Shown: positions 3,561-38,859 of the stretch, one piece after another | Layout of the letters: the number at the start of each line of letters is the position of its first letter | Position numbering within the stretch: the stretch's first letter is position 1 | NCBI RefSeq assembly: GCF_004010195.1 | Contig: NC_057752.1 | Span: forward strand, 10,852,865-10,893,140 | Direction: 5' to 3' | Source: Chiloscyllium plagiosum | Lineage: Eukaryota | DNA: 40,276 bases | Program-made: the position numbers and the translations under genes | The notes under the pieces: model-generated | Database searches by the model: none | Seen by the model: the letters and a program-made list of their open reading frames with translations, nothing else | Told to the model about the DNA's origin: nothing

Positions 3561-6500
3561 TGTAAAAGGAAAATACTCGAAGAGAAACTTTTTTCAAATT
3601 AAAAAATGGATCACTTAGTAAATTATACACCTGCATATCAAAGAGTTGGGTTTAGGTCATCAAGTGGCAAAACTGAAATTTACAAAGCCAAAAACAGGTC
3701 TGTAGTTTGCCAATCTTGCGTACTGTATTCATATAAAATAACAAAGACTCTGCCTAATTCTATCTGTAAGAAAGCAAGCTGTGCAGCATTAGAGGAAGTG
3801 ACTAGATTGCAGATGTGATTTTCTGACACAAAGCATGGTCGATATAACATGCCAAAAGTGGACTGTAACTGCCATCTAATACTGCAAATGCAAAGGTAAG
3901 AGAAAATAGTTTGCAATCTTACATTAAGGTTTGTAATCTATAATAACTTCCAGATCATGAAACATCATTAACAGCAGGCAATGTGGCTAAAAGAGCTTTA
4001 ATATTTACCAGGGGAGATATAATGGGGAGACATGACATTGAAGTTTAAGAGGAGCAATGATGTAACTGCACTTAAAATAGAAAAAGGGAACAAACAAACT
4101 CAAAACAGCACAAAGCCCCAATCTGGATGGACGGTGTCCAACTATTTTAGAAAAATCAAGGGAAGCAATAGCAGCATTACAGATCAGATATTCTTCATCT
4201 GAAAATCTTGGAACAACTTTTTTTTTGGGAAGGAGAACATTTTCAGTTTTTGGATGCAAGGCAGTAAATAGATTTGCACAGTTTTAATCATTAATTCTGA
4301 CTCGGCATCAGATTAAAATCAAGGTCACAGCACCTGTTTGAATTGCTGGAACCTGTCAAGTTCTGCCTTAGTTGGAAAGTTTTTGTCACCTTGTTTAATG
4401 AATCAGTTAAATAATTCAGAATGGTTATTACCTCTTGTGATGGCTGCACCCAACTATTATCGATCACATTGTGTGCGAAGTGCGAATAAATAACTATTTG
4501 CAGAGGAAAAGCATGAGGCACAAAATATCAACATTTACTGCAATACACTTAGGTCCACTGTCTGTCCGGTTGGACCCTTTGGGGGAAAAAAAACAGCTTT
4601 TCTTAATCCAAATAGATCTGAACAGACCAAAAAGTGAAGCATTTTCCAACTGGACCAAAACAGATCTGCTGCCACAATGAGTTCAAACCTTTGAGGAAAA
4701 TAACTTCACTTTTCCATCCATTTGGATCAACAATTCTTTTCCAAAGGAGGTGAACTCAGCATGTCGACAGGTCTGTTCGAGGCCATTCTCGAAAAAGATC
4801 CTCAGTTTTTAAGTCTTTTCAGTTTCCAGACGTGCAGATAAAGGATACCTGACAGGTACTTCAAGTGGCCAGGGCCTGGGAAATGAATATTCAAGGTTAC
4901 ACATGTTATCGTAAGGACAGACTGACGGACAGAGGGGGTGGGGTGGCCATGTTGGTAAGGGATGATATTCAGTCCCTTGCGCGGGTGGGACCTAGAATCA
5001 GGGGATGTAGAGTCAGTATGGATAGAGCTGAGGAATTCTAAGGGTAAAAAGACCCTCTTGGGAGTTATCTACAGGCCCCCAAACAGTAGTCTGGATGTCG
5101 GATGTAAGTTGAATCACGAGCTGAAATTGGCCTATCCCAAAGATGTTACTACAGTTGTTATGGGGGATTTCAACATGCAGGTAGACTGGGAGAATCAGGA
5201 TGGTATTGGACCTCAAAAAAGAGACTTTGTGGAGTGCCTCCGAGATGGATTCTTACAACAGCTGGTGCTGGAGACTACCAGGGAGAAGGCTATTCTGGAT
5301 CTGGTATTGTGCAACGAACCAGAATTGATCAGGGACCTCGAAGTGAAGGAGCCATTGGGAAGTAGTGACCATAATACAATAAGCTTCAATCTGCAATTTG
5401 AGGGGGAGAGGGTACAATCGGAAGTGACAATATTTCAGTTGAATAAAGGGAACTACGGAGTTATGAGAGGGGAGATGACCAAAGTTCAACGGTGCAATAC
5501 CTTAGCAGGGATGACAGTGGAGGAACAATGGCAGATATTTCTGTGTATAATGCAGAAGGTGCAGGATCAGTTCATTCCAAAAAGGAAGATCCTAGGAGGA
5601 GGCAGGGGTGATCGTGGCTGACGAGGGAAGTTAAGAAACATATAAAGTTAAGAGAGAAAAAGTATAACACAGCAAAGATAAGTGGGAAAACGGAGGACTG
5701 GGAAGCTTTTAAAGAACAGAGGATTACTAAGAAGGAAATACGCAGAGAAAAAATGAGGTATGAAGGTAAACTGGCCAAAAATATAAAGGAGGATAATAAA
5801 AGCTTTTTTTTTTAGGTGTGAAAGGCAAAAAAATGGTTAAGACTAAAATTGGGCCCTTGAAGACAGAAACAGGGGAATATATTATGGGGAACAAAGAAAT
5901 GGCAGAAAAATTAAATTGGTACTTCAGATCTGTGTTCACTGGGGAAGACACAAGCAATCGCCCTGAGGTAACAGTGGCTGAAGGACCTGAACTGAAGGGA
6001 ATTTATATTTGCCAGGAATTGGAGAGACTGTTAGGTCTGAAGGTTGATAAGTCCCCAGGGCCTGATGGTCTACATCCCAGGGTACTGAAGGAGATGGCTC
6101 GAGAAATCATGGATGCGTTGGTGATTATTTTCCAGAGTTCAATAGATTCGGGATCAGTTCCTGCGGATTGGAAGGTGGCTAATGTTGTACCACTTTTTAA
6201 GAAAGGTGGGAGAGAGAAAACAGGAAATTATAGACCAGTTAGTCTGACCTCAGTGATGGGAAAGATGCTGGAGTCTATTATAAAGGATGAAATTACGACA
6301 CATCTGGATAGTAGTAACAGGACAGGTCAGAGTCAGCATGGATTTATGAAGGGGAAATCATGCTTGACTAATCTTCTGGAATTTTTTGAGGATGTAACTC
6401 TGAAGATGGACGAGGGAGATCCAGTAGATGTAGTGTACCTGGACTTTCAGAAAGCTTTTGATAAAGTCCCACATAGGAGGTTAGTGAGCAAAATTAGGGC

Positions 6501-6850
6501 GCATGGTATTGGGGGCAAAGTACTAACTTGGATTGAAAGTTGGTTGGCTGACAGGAAACAAAGTAGTGATAAACGGCTCAATTTCGGAATGGCAGGCAGT
6601 GACCAGTGGGGTACCGCAGGAGTCAGTGCTGGGACCACAGCTTTTTACAATATATATTAATGATATTGAAGATGGTATTAGTAATAACATTAGCAAATTT
6701 GCTGATGATACTAAGCTGGGTGGCAGGGTGAAATGTGAGGAGGATGTTAGGAGATTACAGGTGACCTGGACAGGTTAGGTGAGTGGTCAGATGCATGGCA
6801 GATGCAGTTTAATGTGGATAAATGTATGGTTATCCACTTTGGTGGCAAGG

Positions 6851-7631
6851 TTTGGGAGAAGATTTGTAGCTCAGGTGCTCGTTGTTGTTGTTCTGTTTGC
6901 CGTGCTGGGAATTTGTGTTGCAGACGTTTCGTCCCCTGTCTAGGTGACATCCTCAGTGCTTGGGAGCCTCCTGTGAAGCGCTTCTGTGATGTTTCCTCCG
7001 GCATTTATAGTGATTTGTACCTGCCGCTTCCGGTTGTCAGTTCCAGCTGTCCGTTGTAGTGGTCGGTATATTGGGTCCAGGTCAATGTGCTTATTAATTG
7101 AATCTGTGGATGAGTGCCATGCCTCTAGGAATTCCCTGGCTGTTCTCGGTTTGGCTTGTCCTATAATAGTCGAACTCATGTTGCTTGTCATCTGGAGTGT
7201 GTGGCTACGAAGGATAGCTGGTCGTGTCGTTTCGTGGCTAGTTGGTGTTCATGGATGCGGATCGTTAGCTTCTTCCTGTTTGTCCTATGTAGTATTTTGT
7301 GCAGTCCTTGCATGGGGGAAAAAAATTCCCATTCAAAAACTGCACAAAACACTACATTGGACAAACAGGAAGACAACTAACGATCTGCATCCATGAACAC
7401 CAACTAGCCACGAAACGACACGACCAGCTATGCTTAGTAGCCACACACTCAGATGACAAGCAACATGAATTCGACTGGGACAACACTACTATTATAGGGC
7501 AAGCCAAACAGAGAACAGCCAGGGAATTTCTAGAGGCATGGTACTCATCCACAGATTCAATCAATAAGCACATCGACCTGGACCCAATATACCTGCCACT
7601 GCAATGGACAGCTGGAACTGACAACCGGAAG
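6851..7631. mobile_element. Penelope-like element 3' region (GIY-YIG endonuclease + pLTR) as an inverted repeat
   Basis: Right arm (7321-7631, +) encodes CTKHYIGQTGRQL.IHEH...AREFLEAW...INKHIDLDPIY; left arm (6851-7315, -) is its reverse complement plus the 3' tail; right end lost in the gap. Confidence 0.9.
6920..6959 (-). ncRNA. Minimal type I hammerhead ribozyme motif in Penelope pLTR
   Basis: Minus strand GCA-CUGAGGA-U-GUCACCU-AGAC-AGGGGAC-GAAAC-GUC-UGC: core, stem II (one mismatch), palindromic ACGU stem III, 3-bp stem I. Confidence 0.75.
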
Positions 7632-7975
7632 NNNNNNNNNNNNNNNNNNNNNNNNNNNNNNNNNNNNNNNNNNNNNNNNNNNNNNNNNNNNNNNNNNNNN
7701 NNNNNNNNNNNNNNNNNNNNNNNNNNNNNNNNNNNNNNNNNNNNNNNNNNNNNNNNNNNNNNNNNNNNNNNNNNNNNNNNNNNNNNNNNNNNNNNNNNNN
7801 NNNNNNNNNNNNNNNNNNNNNNNNNNNNNNNNNNNNNNNNNNNNNNNNNNNNNNNNNNNNNNNNNNNNNNNNNNNNNNNNNNNNNNNNNNNNNNNNNNNN
7901 NNNNNNNNNNNNNNNNNNNNNNNNNNNNNNNNNNNNNNNNNNNNNNNNNNNNNNNNNNNNNNNNNNNNNNNNNNN
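7632..7975. other. Assembly gap (344 N)
   Basis: Run of N. Confidence 1.
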
Positions 7976-8534
7976 CTACCTTACGCTGAAAGACTGGAGC
8001 AACTGGGCTTGTATACCCTTGAGTTTAGAAGACTGAGAGGGGATCTGATTGAGACATAAGATTATTAAAGGATTGGACACTCTGGAGGCAGGAAACATGT
8101 TTCCGCTGATGGGTGAGTGCCGAACCAGAGGACACAGCTTAAAAATAAGGGGTAGGCCATTTAGGACAGAGATGATGAGAAACTTCTTCACCCAGAGAGT
8201 GGTGACTGTGTGGAACGCTCTGCCCCAGGGCAGTAGAGGCCCAGTCTCTGGATTCATTTAAGAAAGAGTTGGATAGAGCTCTCAAGGATAGTGGAATCAA
8301 GGGTTATGGAGAGAAGACAGGAACAGGATACTGATTAAGGATGATCAGCCATCATCAACCTATCGAATGGTGGTGCAGGCTCGAAGGGCAGAATGGCCTA
8401 CACCTGCAACTATTGTCTATTGCACTACACCCTTTCCAGTCTGTTAGAAAACGGGTGTGGTGTCAGAAAACTGGCAGACGGCCAATGTAAGGCCCACGTT
8501 GAAGGGCAACTGAATATGCCCAGGGAATTACAGA

Positions 8535-10625
8535 CATGTTGGTTTAACAACGTTAATCCAAAAAATAATGATATACCAACTAAAGGAGAACATCTAGAAA
8601 CACTAACAAAAAAAAAATGAAGTCAGGATGGATTTCAAAAGGAAAATCTTGCTTGACCAAGTTTACAGATTTTCTTTGAGGAGATAACAGAGTGTAGACA
8701 ATGGTAATTTAGTCACTGCAATTTAACTGGATTGTCAGAAGACTGTTGATAAGGTGCCTCATAACAGAGCAATGAATAATGGATAATGGGTTCAGTGGAA
8801 AAGTGGCAGAATGGTGGAGAGTGCAGTCATTCTAAATGGCAAGAGGTGGAAAGTGGAGTTCCACAAGGACCAGTGCTTGGACTATTGCTGTGCCCAATTT
8901 CCATGAATGATATGGGCAGTGGAATCAAATACACAATTTTAACATTTGTGGATGACACCAAATTGAAAGGTGAATCAATGCTGGGGAGGCAATGGTATAA
9001 TAGGATTGCTGTTCAGTTAGTAATCCAGAGACCCAGATTGTGTGCGTCTGTGTGAGATTGTTGTAAACATCTATCTGGTTCACTAATGTCCATTAGGGAA
9101 GGAAATCCCTCATCCTCACCAGTCTGGCCTACATGTGACTCCAGACCCATTGCAATGTGGTTGACTCTCAAGTGCCCTCTGAAATGGCCCTGCAAGCCCC
9201 TCAAGAGCATCTAAAAGTACACAAACTACCAGGCATCAATCAGAAATTACACTGGCAAGCTCCATCCAATCAAAATTCCTAACATTTGGGTGCTGGAGCT
9301 CAAAATTGAGAGAGCTGTCTCACTGGTTATTCAAGCAAAAGCTTGACAGCAAACTCCTGGAATCATACCTTAGGGATAAAGTCGCAGACTTGTTTAGGTT
9401 AGTGTAGTTGCAAGAACACTCAAGAAGGTTGACAGGTTAAAGCAGCTTTTTACTCCCTTCAAAACCGTACAGCTCTAACACTACATCCCATCAACAAGAC
9501 ACTTTAGAAATTCACCAGCTCCTTAAACAGCACCTCCCAAACCCACAACCATCCAGAAGGATAAGCGCAGCAGGTACAGGGAACACCACCTGCAGCCTCC
9601 CCTCCAAACCCCTCACCATCCACATCTTGCCATTCCTTCAGGGTTACTGGGTCAAATTTCTATAATACCCTTCCTAACAGCAAATAGACTGTAGTAGCTC
9701 AAGAAAGCAGCTCAACACCACCTTCTCAAGGGAACTGGGAATGGGCAACAAATTTTGGCTCAGTAGCAAGACCCACATCTCCTGAATGCATCAAATTACA
9801 GGAGGACACAAAAACTTAGAATGGGAAACTAATTAGCAAATTAAATTCAGCACATAAATGTGAGATGATACATTTTGATAGGAGGAATAGGGATATCACT
9901 TACTATTTTACAGGGGCAAGTCTAGGAGGGGCTCAGTAATAACAGGGTCTCGAAGTACAAATCTACAAATCAGTGAAGGTTGCACCACTGAAGGTTATCA
10001 AGGCCTTTTTAAAAAAAAAACTAAGCACTGAGCCTTATTTCTAGAAGGACAGATTTGGAAAACAGGGAGGTTCTGCTAAACCTGTTAGACCACCCTCAGG
10101 TAGTGTGTGCAGTTCTGGTTGCCATGTTAGAAAAAATGACAGAGGGGCACTGGAGAGAATGCAGAGAAGATATAAAAAATGATTCCTTACATCATGACCC
10201 ATATACTTCTGGCAAGGATTGATAGACTGAGCCTCTCTCTTAAAACTAACAGACTAAAGGGTGACCTAATGGAGACATCTTCAATGCTGAAAAGTTTTGA
10301 GAGAGTGGATAGAGAAAATGTTTCCTCGTGTGCGGAAAAGCAGACCTCGACCATCGATAAAATGCAACCAGAAATTCAAAAGAAACTTGACACCGGTAAA
10401 AATATGAAAATCCCTCCCACTGAGTGGTTGAAGCAAATACACAGATGTATTTAAGGAGATGTTGGATGGACAGAAAAATGAGGGAGCAGTGAAAGAGAGG
10501 GTTATAAAAGGTACAGACAGAGGAGGAAAGATTGGAGAAAACTTGAGTGAATCATAGACATTCGCATGCTCCTTTTGCTCTGAATGTGCTGTTTCTATGT
10601 TGCATAGCCTTTGCAATCCAATGTA
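8535..10625 (+). mobile_element. Old degenerate CR1 LINE RT/3' region, interrupted at ~9018-9790
   Basis: GVPQGPVLGLLL, FVDDTKL, then ALERMQRR and RLKGDLMETS after the insertion. Confidence 0.75.
9018..9790 (+). mobile_element. Internally deleted family-B LINE (SINE-like 5' region + APE N-terminus joined to the 3' end)
   Basis: 5' part similar to 13463-13747; 9280-9390 encodes NIWVL..K/LRELSHWLFKQKLD..LLESYLRDKV (APE N-terminus-like); 9410-9790 matches the 3' end CACCACCTTCTCAAGGG..GGATGGGCAA seen at 15860 and 35270. Confidence 0.65.
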
Positions 10626-17201: not shown

Positions 17202-17506
17202 GTAAAGTGCCTGGGTATGTGAAGCAAAATGTCGCAGCACTCTGCAACTGCAGTGAAGGAAATGTTGCACCAACCATATACCTGGTGTATGGCACAACGG
17301 TTTGGGGCTGACTGCTGAAACATTAACCTCCGTGCCCGTGGCCTTCCTAGTTGAAACATGGCTGACTTGTGACCTCAGAAGCTGAGCAGCCTCAGTCCTT
17401 GTAAGTACTTTCTGGAAGACCAGTTGGGAATACAGGTGCAACAGGCTAGAGCAGGGTGAAACCATGACTGTGCTAAACCAAGTATAGGAGAATAGGTTCC
17501 AAAATA

Positions 17507-17625
17507 TGATGTGGAGGTGCTGGTGTTGGACAGGGGTGGGCAAAGTTAAAAATCACATAACACCAGGTTATAATCCTGTGGGACTATAACCTGGTGATGT
17601 GATTTTTTTTTTTTTAAAAAACACC
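17507..17625. mobile_element. Penelope-derived hairpin element (same family as 37588) with the centre deleted
   Basis: AAAAATCACATAACACCAGGTTATA..TATAACCTGGTGATGTGATTTTT inverted arms; flanking TTCCAAAA(T/C)A duplication at 17497 and 17626. Confidence 0.75.
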
Positions 17626-18106: not shown

Positions 18107-18320
18107 ACTGAAAATGTGTTGCTGGAAAAGCGCAGCAGGTCAGGCAGCATCCAAGGAACAGGAGAATCGACATTTCGGGCATAAGCCCTTCTTCAGCCTG
18201 AAGGGCTTATGCCCGAAACGTCGATTCTCCTGTTTCTTGGATGCTGCCTGACCTGCTGCGCTTTTCCAGCAACACATTTTCAGCTCTGATCTCCAGCATC
18301 TGCAGTCCTCACTTTCTCCT
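18107..18320. mobile_element. Non-autonomous Penelope-type palindromic element with two opposed hammerhead motifs and a 14-bp TSD
   Basis: Arms 18108-18196 and 18198-18283 are near-perfect reverse complements; 37-nt unpaired extension; GGTAAAATGCTAGA at 18093-18106 and 18321-18334. Confidence 0.9.
18164..18196 (-). ncRNA. Minimal hammerhead ribozyme motif (probably defective)
   Basis: CUGAAGA-A-GGGC-UUAU-GCCC-GAAAU-GUC-GAUUC; 5' strand of stem I missing; the mirror copy on + (18198-18227) has a 3-nt core deletion. Confidence 0.6.
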
Positions 18321-33656: not shown

Positions 33657-34262
33657 CAGATGTGGTGATGCTGGTGTTGAACTGTGGTGAAGAGTCAGAA
33701 GTCACATGACACCAGATTAGAATTTTTTTAGAATCCCTCCAGTGTGGAAACAGGTCCTTCAGCCAAACAAGTCCGCACCGATCCTCCAAACAGTAACCCA
33801 CCCAGACCCATTCCCCTACCCTATATTTACCCCTGACTAATAACCTACACTCTGGGCAATTTAGCATGGCCAATTCACCTGACTTGAACATCTTTGGACT
33901 GTGGGAGGAAACCGGAGCAGCCAGAGGAAACCCACACAGACACAGGGAGAATGTGTAAACTCCACACAGACAATCGCCCGAGGCTGGAATCAAACCAGGG
34001 TTCCTGGCGCTGTGAGGCAGCTGTGCTAACCACTGAGCCACACGCCGATTTCTGTTTGGGGAACATTTTCACGACCCCATTAAAAACCCGGAACTGTGCA
34101 GGAAAGAAAACGGATGAAGAAAGAATGGGGGGTGGGGGGGGATCTCAAACCACCAACCGCTCGGTTAACAGCCAAACACACTGACCAATTGCGCCAGAGA
34201 CTTACAGTCCAACAGGTTTATTTGAAATCACAAGCTTTCAGACAGCAGCCCCTTTATCAGGC
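33657..34262 (-). mobile_element. Penelope-derived element (37588 family) split by an HE1-containing insertion
   Basis: GATGTGGTGATGCTGGTGTTGAACTG..CACCAG (33659-33716) resumes as CAGTCCAACAGGTTTATTTGAAATCACAAGCTTTCAGACAGCAGCCCCTTTATCAGG (34205-34261), a decayed minus-strand hammerhead. Confidence 0.55.
33716..34047 (-). mobile_element. HE1-type V-SINE
   Basis: Reverse complement has TGGCTCAGTGG A box, GGTTTGATTCC B box, V-domain and CR1-like 3' end. Confidence 0.9.
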
Positions 34263-36890: not shown

Positions 36891-37587
36891 TTCAATCACA
36901 ACATATTTTCCTAAACCGTTTTGTTTCAATTTTATCTTGTGTGACCTTCCAAGAAGAACCAGGAAGCCAAAACATTAACAGCAGGAGCTTTATTAAGGAG
37001 ATGTTTACTCGACAGGCAGCAGTTTCCCACCCAAAATGGCTGAAGTCATTATGTCACATGATCAGACCCAAAGTGACAGTCCACCATACTTTTCAAACAC
37101 AAGGATAATTTATGCATGACATTTAACCTAAAGCAGGGAAAACTCTGAACACTGTGGATTTGGCATTTGATGGTAGTGAGGACATATTACATAGAAAAGA
37201 TGTAAATATTTGAGATCAATCACAGATGACTGGACCTCTCAAATTTACTCAGCTCTTTTCTTCTTAACCATACGTACAAAGTGCAAGATGAGCTTAAAAT
37301 TTGTACTGGGAGAACGGAGATCAATCCCAACTGATCTTCCAAAGAGCACAGCATTTTTCACGATATTATTTAAAAAGGACTTACATTCATAGAGTGCTTT
37401 TCATGAATATGGATTATAAATTGCTTTGATCTGTCCAATGAGATAAAAACAGAAGACGTTTGAAATCCTCAGGAGGTCAGACAGCACCAGTGTATACAAA
37501 CAGTAAATGGCTGACGTCAATGACTTTTCATCAGAATTTGTGCCTGAACTCTCAGCTTTGTTCCTCTATCCATTGTGTATTTCTAGT

Positions 37588-37754
37588 GATTTGGAGATGC
37601 CGGCGTTGGACTGGGGTGCACAAAGTTAAAAATCATACAACACCAGGCTATAGTCCAACAGAACCACCTGATGACGGAGTGGCGCTCCGAAAGCTAGTGT
37701 GTTTCCAATTAAACCTATTGGACTATAACCTGGTGTTTTGTGATTTTTAAACTT
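37588..37754 (+). mobile_element. Non-autonomous Penelope-type hairpin element with an intact hammerhead core and 12-bp TSD
   Basis: Inverted arms ~37619-37661 and 37714-37758; TGTATTTC(T/C)AGT at 37576-37587 and 37755-37766. Confidence 0.85.
37665..37699 (+). ncRNA. Minimal type I hammerhead ribozyme motif
   Basis: CAC-CUGAUGA-C-GGAG-UGGCG-CUCC-GAAAG-CUA-GUG: core, stem II, palindromic AGCU stem III, 3-bp stem I. Confidence 0.75.
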
Positions 37755-38506
37755 TGTATTTCCAGTATCCACAATCTTATACTTCTGTTACACTCAGTGA
37801 AGTACTCTTGAAGCATAAATCGCTGTTAAAATGTAGAAAGCAGAGCAGCTATATAGCACATAGCAAACCCCTGCAAACAGTAACGTGGTGATGACCAAAC
37901 ATTGCAGTATTGATCAAGGTCACAACACTGGAACTAACTCTCTACTCTTCTTCTGATAGCATCACAGGATTGTAAGCAAATGAAGGCCTTCAAATACCAT
38001 CAAACTGCAGAACTCTTGGCATATCATTTGCTGGACAGCGTTTACTGGAGAAGGCTTTCTTTAATGCAAGAGTTGAAATAAATACTTTCTCAACATGAGC
38101 AGAACAAATTTATAATACTCTGTAGTTACCCCAGCCTCAAAACAAAGGCAGGGATATCTGCTCTGATAGCTCCCAAGTTTGAATATCGATTGAAAGGTCT
38201 ATGACAAAGTCAAACACAGCTCACCCCTTCAAAGGTTTCCCCACAGCAGTGACACCAAAAACACTTGAGTAAACATTGTGCAGCATCACCAATTTGATTC
38301 AATTTGATTTTTTCCATGGTTTCTGGAAATACTCCCATTCATTTAGCACCAGTTCTTCAAGGTCAGTGTTTCAGCCATCAAGTGTATAGAAAGATTGCAT
38401 GCTGGTCATATGCTTACATTTTGACAGATTTGTACGCTCGAATTCAAGAGCATTACTTGCAAATGAGTAATTTCCCATTTTGTACCAAGAGCAATCCGCC
38501 TCCAAA

Positions 38507-38859
38507 AGGACAGGTACAGCATGGGGTTCGATACAAAGTAAAGCTACCTCTACTCTTTTAACCTGAATGGAAAACTGCCTTTACTCTTTTAAACCAAAAG
38601 TAAAAAGGCCCCTAAATTCTGCCCTATCAAACACTTCCAGGACAGGGACAGTATAGGCTTAGATACACAGTAAACCTCCCTCTACTCTTAAACCAGAAGT
38701 AAACCGAAAGTAAAACTCCCTTGACAGTGTCCCCATTGAACACTCCCGGGAAAGAAACAGCATGGGGTTAAAATACAGAGTAAAGCTTGCTCTACTCGTT
38801 TAAAGAAACGACACTAAAAGGATAGCTCCCTCTATACTGTCCACATCCAACACTCCCCA
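38507..38859 (+). repeat. Degenerate minisatellite, three ~110-130 bp units
   Basis: GGACAGG.ACAGCATGGGGTT.GATACA.AGTAAAGCT.CCTCTACTC...CCC.AT..AACACTCCC repeated at ~38508, ~38640, ~38749. Confidence 0.8.

Follow-up and report, generated by a model that had tools for sequence, protein, structure and literature searches.

A truncated Penelope-like insertion with a probably inactive hammerhead ribozyme in the genome of Chiloscyllium plagiosum

A short hairpin in the genome of the shark Chiloscyllium plagiosum exposes a hammerhead motif in its loop, which raises the question of whether the ribozyme works where it stands and what kind of element brought it there. The window analysed here is a 40,276-nucleotide stretch of contig NC_057752.1, and a sequence-only reading had placed in it a hairpin family whose intact hammerhead was the best candidate for an active ribozyme in the window. 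We conclude instead, at a probability of roughly 0.87, that the locus is a truncated insertion of a Penelope-like element (PLE), made of two head-to-head stubs within a target-site duplication (TSD), and that its loop hammerhead is likely inactive or nearly so.

Anatomy of the insertion

The insertion occupies positions 37588-37754 and is bounded by the best flanking direct repeat, a 12-bp TSD with one mismatch (37576-37587 on the left, 37755-37766 on the right, + strand), in line with family TSDs of 11-17 bp. Its hairpin arms, 37626-37661 and 37715-37750, are 36 nt long and 89% complementary, and can be extended to 37620-37661 and 37715-37758 (42 and 44 nt). Both the duplication and the arms of about 43 bp thus stand as the sequence-only reading described them. 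Folding of 37588-37754 gave −62 kcal/mol (z = −5.41), and 0 of 200 shuffled sequences folded equally well.

Arm comparison and alignment to the family resolve the hairpin into two stubs (positions preceded by a sign are counted from the first C of the hammerhead core). The inverted stub lies on the − strand and measures 74 nt. It begins with a PLE 'tail' of ~32 nt (37588-37619) that only this stub carries and that ends at the family's fixed outer point, ~+122 from hammerhead C3; it continues as the left hairpin arm (37620-37661) and breaks off at +47, before reaching the ribozyme and the poly(A) hexamer. The sense stub (37662-37758, + strand, 97 nt) runs from −6 to ~+90 and contains a minimal type I hammerhead (37665-37699). 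Its final 4 nt (37755-37758) are also part of the TSD, an overlap that is likely priming microhomology.

The insertion had also been read as sitting in an older Penelope-derived repeat at ~37460-37790. This is borne out on the left, where a decayed remnant of a second Penelope-type repeat lies outside the insertion (37432-37545, − strand, 65-89% identity to other copies), but the right flank up to 37790 has no homologue among the loci compared. The remnant is related to the family of the element at 18107, and keeps only the CUGAUGA half of a hammerhead.

The locus copy itself differs from the commonest letter at 7 of 84 positions, where 13 copies of the same subtype have a median of 3, and its arms carry uncompensated changes; judged from these letters, its decay looks neutral. 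Contigs of a second, related species overlap the two ends of the element by 29 and 27 nt, lengths just below our 31-letter bridging rule, with ~2.6% divergence in the flanks, which suggests that the insertion is common to both species.

A Penelope-like parent

We reached the parent element by walking upstream from unselected family copies. One of them, L094 (G000:C3:74489600-74497813, ~3829-7431), is useful as a family reference: it is an insertion of ~3.6 kb with a perfect 12-bp TSD and ends of a type identical to those of the locus. Its parts follow one another as a tailed inverted copy, a 5'-truncated sense copy with reverse transcriptase (RT) and endonuclease (EN), the hammerhead and a tailless end. 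The L094 ORF is frameshifted, and no full-length intact parent was found among the copies walked upstream.

ORF pieces from L094 and a second long copy, L080, match RVT_1 at E=6e-6, below the curated cut-off. The parent ORF pieces have a GIY-YIG-like C-terminus with a VVYL..YIG motif; Atlas GIY-YIG clusters match the parent at 0.96, and the family is found on 23-31% of cluster members. Pfam gave no GIY-YIG match on the parent ORF, and a PF01541 profile search of the genome returned one weak match on a 1-kb contig and did not recover the parent. Between RT and EN, three copies (L066, L079 and L087) have a CX4CxxC linker. According to the accessible text of PMC8557442, a CX2-5CxxC linker in this place marks the Neptune clade. 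The parent would therefore be Neptune-type by its linker, a feature that is common to Nematis too and is not decisive alone.

In L080 the hammerhead core lies ~660 nt behind the ORF stop, collinear with L094, and the locus aligns to that region; the locus copy carries no ORF. With RT and EN, a downstream hammerhead, a one-sided tail and a TSD all found in the family, the locus is, as far as sequence can tell, a truncated copy of an EN+ PLE. The hammerhead-type motif and the link to Penelope that the sequence-only reading drew are upheld in this way, by the core boxes and by a same-ended parent of RT/GIY-YIG type.

Ribozyme core and predicted activity

The core reads from stem I (37665-37667 with 37697-37699) through CUGAUGA (37668-37674), an extra C (37675) and a 5-bp stem II (37676-37680 with 37684-37688) to GAAA (37689-37692) and GCUA (37693-37696), with the canonical cut predicted after A37696. 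The G10.1-C11.1 pair is 37676/37688, the UH site is UA at 37695-37696, and a palindromic AGCU (37692-37695) stands in for stem III, an architecture described in PMC4209133. The locus copy keeps all canonical core letters and the palindrome, and the loop motif and cut position given earlier are correct. The word 'intact' holds for the canonical boxes, but not for position 37675, where the family has A. Rfam listed no hammerhead family among its 7 window matches at E≤1.

A degenerate 32-letter core pattern found 16,291 matches in the 3.56-Gb genome, and the reversed pattern, used as a control, found 0. At the position of 37675, 57 of these cores have C and 73 have T, frequencies that fit neutral point changes, as expected. 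An unpaired nucleotide is expected between A9 and G10.1, and a nucleotide is present there; as C37675, however, it is predicted to pair with G37689, which is G12, extending stem II, whereas the family A is not. The predicted pair probability is 0.86 at the locus and 0.00 in 14 sisters with A (those 14 of 29 that have the exact core). G12 is the general base of the hammerhead (PMC6155905), which C37675 would capture in lengthening stem II. An A10-to-C change is described as having 'major detrimental effects' in the CChMVd viroid hammerhead (the available part of PMC3705267, citing De la Pena & Flores 2001), an effect that comes second-hand and from a different ribozyme. G12 is also paired, with other partners and at 0.34-0.75, in 6 of the 14 sisters, a core that is open throughout has a low probability in sisters as well (0-15%), and nearest-neighbour folding takes no account of tertiary contacts. 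On these predictions, most sisters probably cut better than the locus copy does.

As the motif has no stem III, its AGCU would have to pair with that of a second copy, stem I forming in trans. Lunse et al. (RNA Biol 14:1499) are said to have reported dimer cleavage of minimal hammerheads. The expectation in the sequence-only reading that dimer-favouring conditions would be needed agrees with the available text of PMC4209133, where a single min-HHR gave no cleavage and dimers gave little, and with that of PMC6765202, where a single minimal motif likewise did not cleave and dimers were weak. Three family copies, L047 (G000:C1:3863923-3866954), L079 and L086, each hold a closely spaced pair of sense hammerheads (155 nt between them in L047) and are natural candidates for intramolecular dimer cleavage.

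At the locus, the arms would favour the wrong pairing. Stem I has 3 bp family-wide; here it is a bulged stem of 3+3 bp, owed in part to a change at 37702 that is particular to this copy. It forms in the loop at p=0.55, and stem II at p=0.88; only 1 of 30 unselected copies reaches p≥0.5 for stem I, and the locus value exceeds those of 29 of the 30. This supports the exposed motif of the sequence-only reading, although in a non-productive register: the closing arms would hold stem I in cis, whereas a dimer requires it in trans. A fully swapped dimer (−98.7 kcal/mol) is about as stable as two hairpins (−96.4 kcal/mol), so dimers are thermodynamically possible, annealed in vitro. It is also true that the antisense core is absent at the locus, in contrast to the almost complete duplex into which the element at 18107 folds. 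This absence is not special, as an antisense core is absent upstream within 1.5 kb in 13 of 30 unselected copies and present in 17. The 40-kb window offers no intact same-family partner core; its sole other core of the family, at 34260 (−), has 5 substitutions.

RNA evidence came from one poly(A) single-cell, 3'-biased run, of which we sampled 12.96 million records, ~2% of the run. All 88 reads on 37100-38300 were partial matches, none was 99% alike, and they carried the letters of the family. Unique flanking DNA of ~950 nt (37100-37550 and 37797-38300) had zero depth in this one sample, which is not proof of silence. The modal copy, L076, drew 3,940 reads, with flat depth over the cut site (1501, 1496 and 1587) and a drop at the poly(A) sites. 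Neither on L076 nor on the locus did any position gather many read ends, and the library would likely lose a 32-nt 3' cleavage product.

We infer inactivity at this locus because the window holds no intact partner, stem I would be held in cis and C37675 is predicted to pair with G12. The alternative is an active loop hammerhead that, dimerised with another molecule or assisted by a protein, cleaves a host transcript at this locus after 37696. It can call on the kept core and AGCU palindrome, on the stems that form in the loop, on the energetically allowed swapped dimer and on the anole PLE hammerhead, which cleaves once the element protein is added (available text of PMC11167929). We consider it very improbable in view of the predicted C37675-G12 pair, the five substitutions in the nearest same-family core of the window, the lack of reads on the unique flanks in the one sample, the lack of a pile-up of read ends on either copy, and the weakness of min-HHRs even as dimers (PMC4209133, in its available part). 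Its rank as the window's leading ribozyme candidate is thus not supported. That the RNA might cleave weakly in vitro, under forcing conditions, is a distinct matter; it is plausible, if on the doubtful side. The locus is one decayed copy of ~16,000 and a poor choice for a cleavage assay; the sisters L015, L021 and L006, which have the family A and an open core, are better substrates.

Ends, junctions and proposed formation

End and junction statistics rest on the 30 best whole-element matches of 5,110 candidates, 40 of which were scored; these 30 look-alikes were chosen by likeness to the query, with a bias toward short sense stubs. The inverted stub's outer end falls at +119..+127 in all 30 loci, and the sense stub's at +73..+92. 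Inner junctions take 27 distinct positions among the 30, and the exact junction of the locus, as a 22-mer, has one genomic occurrence. TSDs of 11-17 bp flank 24 of the 30 loci, compared with 1 of 240 flank-swapped controls. The tail is confined to one side in 12 of 15 distinct unselected inverted insertions; of the other three, 2 lack it altogether and 1 carries it at both ends. A pile-up of stub ends at the cut site is not convincing: the antisense arms that end at +28..+31 number 5 of 30, and uniform ends would give ~2.7.

Because outer ends are fixed and inner junctions differ, the hairpin appears to be formed anew at each insertion. We propose that the element endonuclease would nick both target strands ~12 nt apart, and that each 3' end would serve as primer for a cDNA begun inside the element RNA at one of two points, ~+122 (tail included) and ~+88 (tail excluded, with 4 nt common to the TSD). 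One cDNA would stop at +47, the other would come close to the RNA 5' end (−6), and both would then be joined; double copying of +47..+88 would need two templates or re-use of one. The hairpin would thus be a by-product of integration, as two cDNAs from one terminal repeat are joined head-to-head. The available text of PMC11167929 describes a PLE protein that cuts and extends both target strands and starts reverse transcription, on uncut RNA, at two internal points bounding the tail.

A second route to the same structure is that the stub was first inserted as a longer palindrome like that at 18107, antisense ribozyme included, and that a later deletion of the centre exposed the motif. An antisense core upstream in 17 of 30 unselected copies would suit such a history, as would the general knowledge that long palindromes are deletion-prone. 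The sense stub, however, starts at −6, within the family's cluster of 5' ends (29 of 40 short copies begin at −10..−4), where a later deletion would have no reason to end, and we regard this route as very unlikely. Whether formed directly or by later deletion of the centre, the locus is a dead PLE stub.

The view that hairpins of this kind are a self-contained non-autonomous family, MITE-like or retrozyme-like and replicating as a unit, fares worse still. The 5,110 first-look candidates, near full-length matches at 83-91% and the outer ends that look-alikes have in common would favour it, and the sequence-only reading spoke of a hairpin family. That description did not survive the distinct junctions of 27 of 30 look-alikes and the single genomic occurrence of the junction found here; additionally, insertion lengths run continuously up to 3.6 kb with unchanged ends, and tandem units are absent. 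We give such a family hardly any chance. The hairpin is the smallest size class of ordinary PLE insertions, with no family of its own.

Poly(A) site and 5' end of the family RNA

Family poly(A) reads, which are not locus-specific, place a poly(A) site at 37708-37728 (+ strand), with ATTAAA at 37708-37713, tail addition after 37725 or 37728 and a GU/U-rich stretch behind. The site lies ~30 nt after the predicted cut site. At the locus equivalents of 37725 and 37728 there were 8 and 32 poly(A) reads. L076 had 437 and 526, positioned 14-17 nt behind A(A/T)TAAA. Together, ~960 of the 3,940 family reads were tailed at +57/+60 (L076:2225-2346), and a 2-nt-shorter subtype contributed 147 more. Of 30 copies, 19 have the hexamer ATTAAA and 4 have AATAAA. 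Family RNA is thus plentiful in an uncut and polyadenylated form, and PLE stubs could donate poly(A) sites to host transcripts. Host co-option of this insertion, as a poly(A) site or a dsRNA hairpin on a + strand transcript, is nonetheless scarcely credible: the family site is strongly used, the locus copy retains ATTAAA and the insertion seems to be present in a related species too, but there are no reads in unique DNA upstream of the site, although family reads reach >350 nt upstream of the tail, the arms carry uncompensated changes, and a Pfam scan of 109 non-repeat window ORFs (≥52 aa) found two RT-type fragments only and no host exon.

The 5' ends of the stubs carry a second signal. The 29 short copies that begin at −10..−4 include 10 at −8 and 7 at −6, and in 18 of the 29 the base before the start is G. 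Genome-wide, the non-native base before A(−8), at position −9, is G in 3,013 matches and A or T in 1,325; with ~35 A among the first 100 A/T matches, G:A is ~6.5. Control positions show no excess (G:A 30:28 at −7 and 49:51 at −11, among the first 100 listed). Of 40 sites with G (L125-L164), 38 are true junctions, the DNA upstream being unrelated, whereas a rule assigns 12 of 30 A/T sites, and inspection by eye 17, to long copies that bear a point change. The native context at the family start is initiator-like.

Two other origins of the G were rejected: a master subfamily with a native G at −9, since 38 of 40 sites have unrelated upstream DNA, and an exon or splice-acceptor origin, as the base at −10 is mixed (T 18, G 13, A 6, C 3) and the upstream DNA is not common to the sites. 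The G could equally derive from the opposite arm in at least 11 of 40 sites, and terminal-transferase addition of C by the RT may be an alternative source. At the locus's own start (−6) a cap-derived G found no backing, with G 30, A 28 and T 42 among the first 100 of 3,183 matches.

An extra G from the cap has been described in full-length L1 insertions (available text of PMC11702581), and rotifer pLTRs carry Inr-like promoter motifs (likewise PMC3846280). We put at about even odds the proposal that the stubs are complete 5'-end copies of a capped RNA polymerase II transcript starting at A(−8), with the cap copied as an extra G, and that the terminal repeat behaves like a compact LTR. RT would then begin 95-130 nt downstream, pass through the uncut ribozyme and reach the cap; the compact LTR would comprise a start, a ribozyme, a poly(A) site and two RT start points, and the usable template would be only RNA that escapes both ribozyme and poly(A) site. 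If true, this would account for thousands of stubs of 100-170 bp and settle the polarity of the PLE template together with its 5' chemistry. The extra G (~3,000 copies) and the heavily used poly(A) site bear on PLE template choice, which PMC11167929 and PMC3846280 leave open in their available text. A literature search on shark Neptune elements, on copying of the cap and on poly(A) sites in PLEs returned nothing on point, with most subscription journals outside its scope.

Other elements in the window

The window holds further Penelope-type remains. A second PLE family is found at 6923-6962 (−) and 6940-7630, with GIY-YIG-like ORF ends in an inverted arrangement beside an N gap. Its core at 6956 (−) is an intact minimal hammerhead with a GUC site and an ACGU palindrome, and its predicted fold is not a hammerhead; the inverted arms of the 6940-7630 family cause spurious Rfam miRNA matches at 7199-7447. 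The PLE fragment at 7293-7631 is of a different family from the one studied here, since BLASTP of it against the parent EN gave no similarity. A third PLE family is represented by a near-perfect palindromic stub at 18107-18290. Its minus-strand core is fully duplexed and has AUGU where the palindrome should be, and its plus-strand core is cut short.

Two stubs belong to the same family as the insertion at 37588-37754. The hairpin stub at 17508-17607 has a tail and no hammerhead, both arms ending before the core, and a solo stub at 34202-34261 (−) carries the decayed core with 5 substitutions. Additionally, a 5S rRNA-like stretch at 17334-17447, below the Rfam gathering score (27.9 bits, E=0.089), is possibly the head of a 5S-derived SINE, and short dispersed direct repeats of 31-51 nt, spaced ~100-130, lie at 38507-38843.

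Comparison with known systems

PLE insertions are described, in the available parts of PMC8557442 and PMC3846280, as an inverted 5'-truncated copy with a one-sided 30-40-bp tail and a TSD. The locus resembles these EN+ PLE insertion units in its head-to-head stubs, its 32-nt tail at one end, its TSD and its microhomology-type junctions. It differs from them in that its stubs are tiny (74 and 97 nt) and in that family TSDs are 11-17 bp, compared with 8-10 bp in rotifers.

With non-LTR retrozymes (PMC7229834; bioRxiv 10.64898/2026.07.22.740005), the locus shares a type I hammerhead, a PLE pLTR origin and a non-coding nature. Retrozymes, however, are head-to-tail tandem units with a ribozyme in each, whereas the locus is a single head-to-head stub, with a single core and no tandem copy in the window.

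The Poseidon element PAc of Anolis (Frangieh et al. 2024, PMC11167929) offers, in its available description, a close mechanistic parallel: RT starts at two internal sites that bound the tail, both strands are cut and are extended on an uncut RNA template, and RNA-seq shows no ends at the cut site. Unlike PAc, the parent here has a Neptune-type linker, and the frame opened by the ATG in its core closes 8 codons on, which means that stem II is not where the ORF begins. The family also has a strong poly(A) site and a cap-like G, features that the available PAc account does not mention.

The core itself is closest to the metazoan PLE min-HHR (Cervera & De la Pena 2014, PMC4209133, in its available part), with which it shares the core boxes, the G10.1-C11.1 pair, the lack of stem III, the nucleotide between 9 and 10.1, the palindromic 15.2-16.2 and the occurrence of thousands of solo copies; the supplements of that paper and of the 2026 preprint, which covers one chondrichthyan genome, may already list the motif. 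Stem I of 3 bp and stem II of 5 bp set the locus apart from that class, where helix I has ~4-5 bp, as does C37675 with its predicted pairing to G12. In copy number, the 16,291 matches to this one family exceed the 4,000-9,000 given there for coelacanth and Xenopus.
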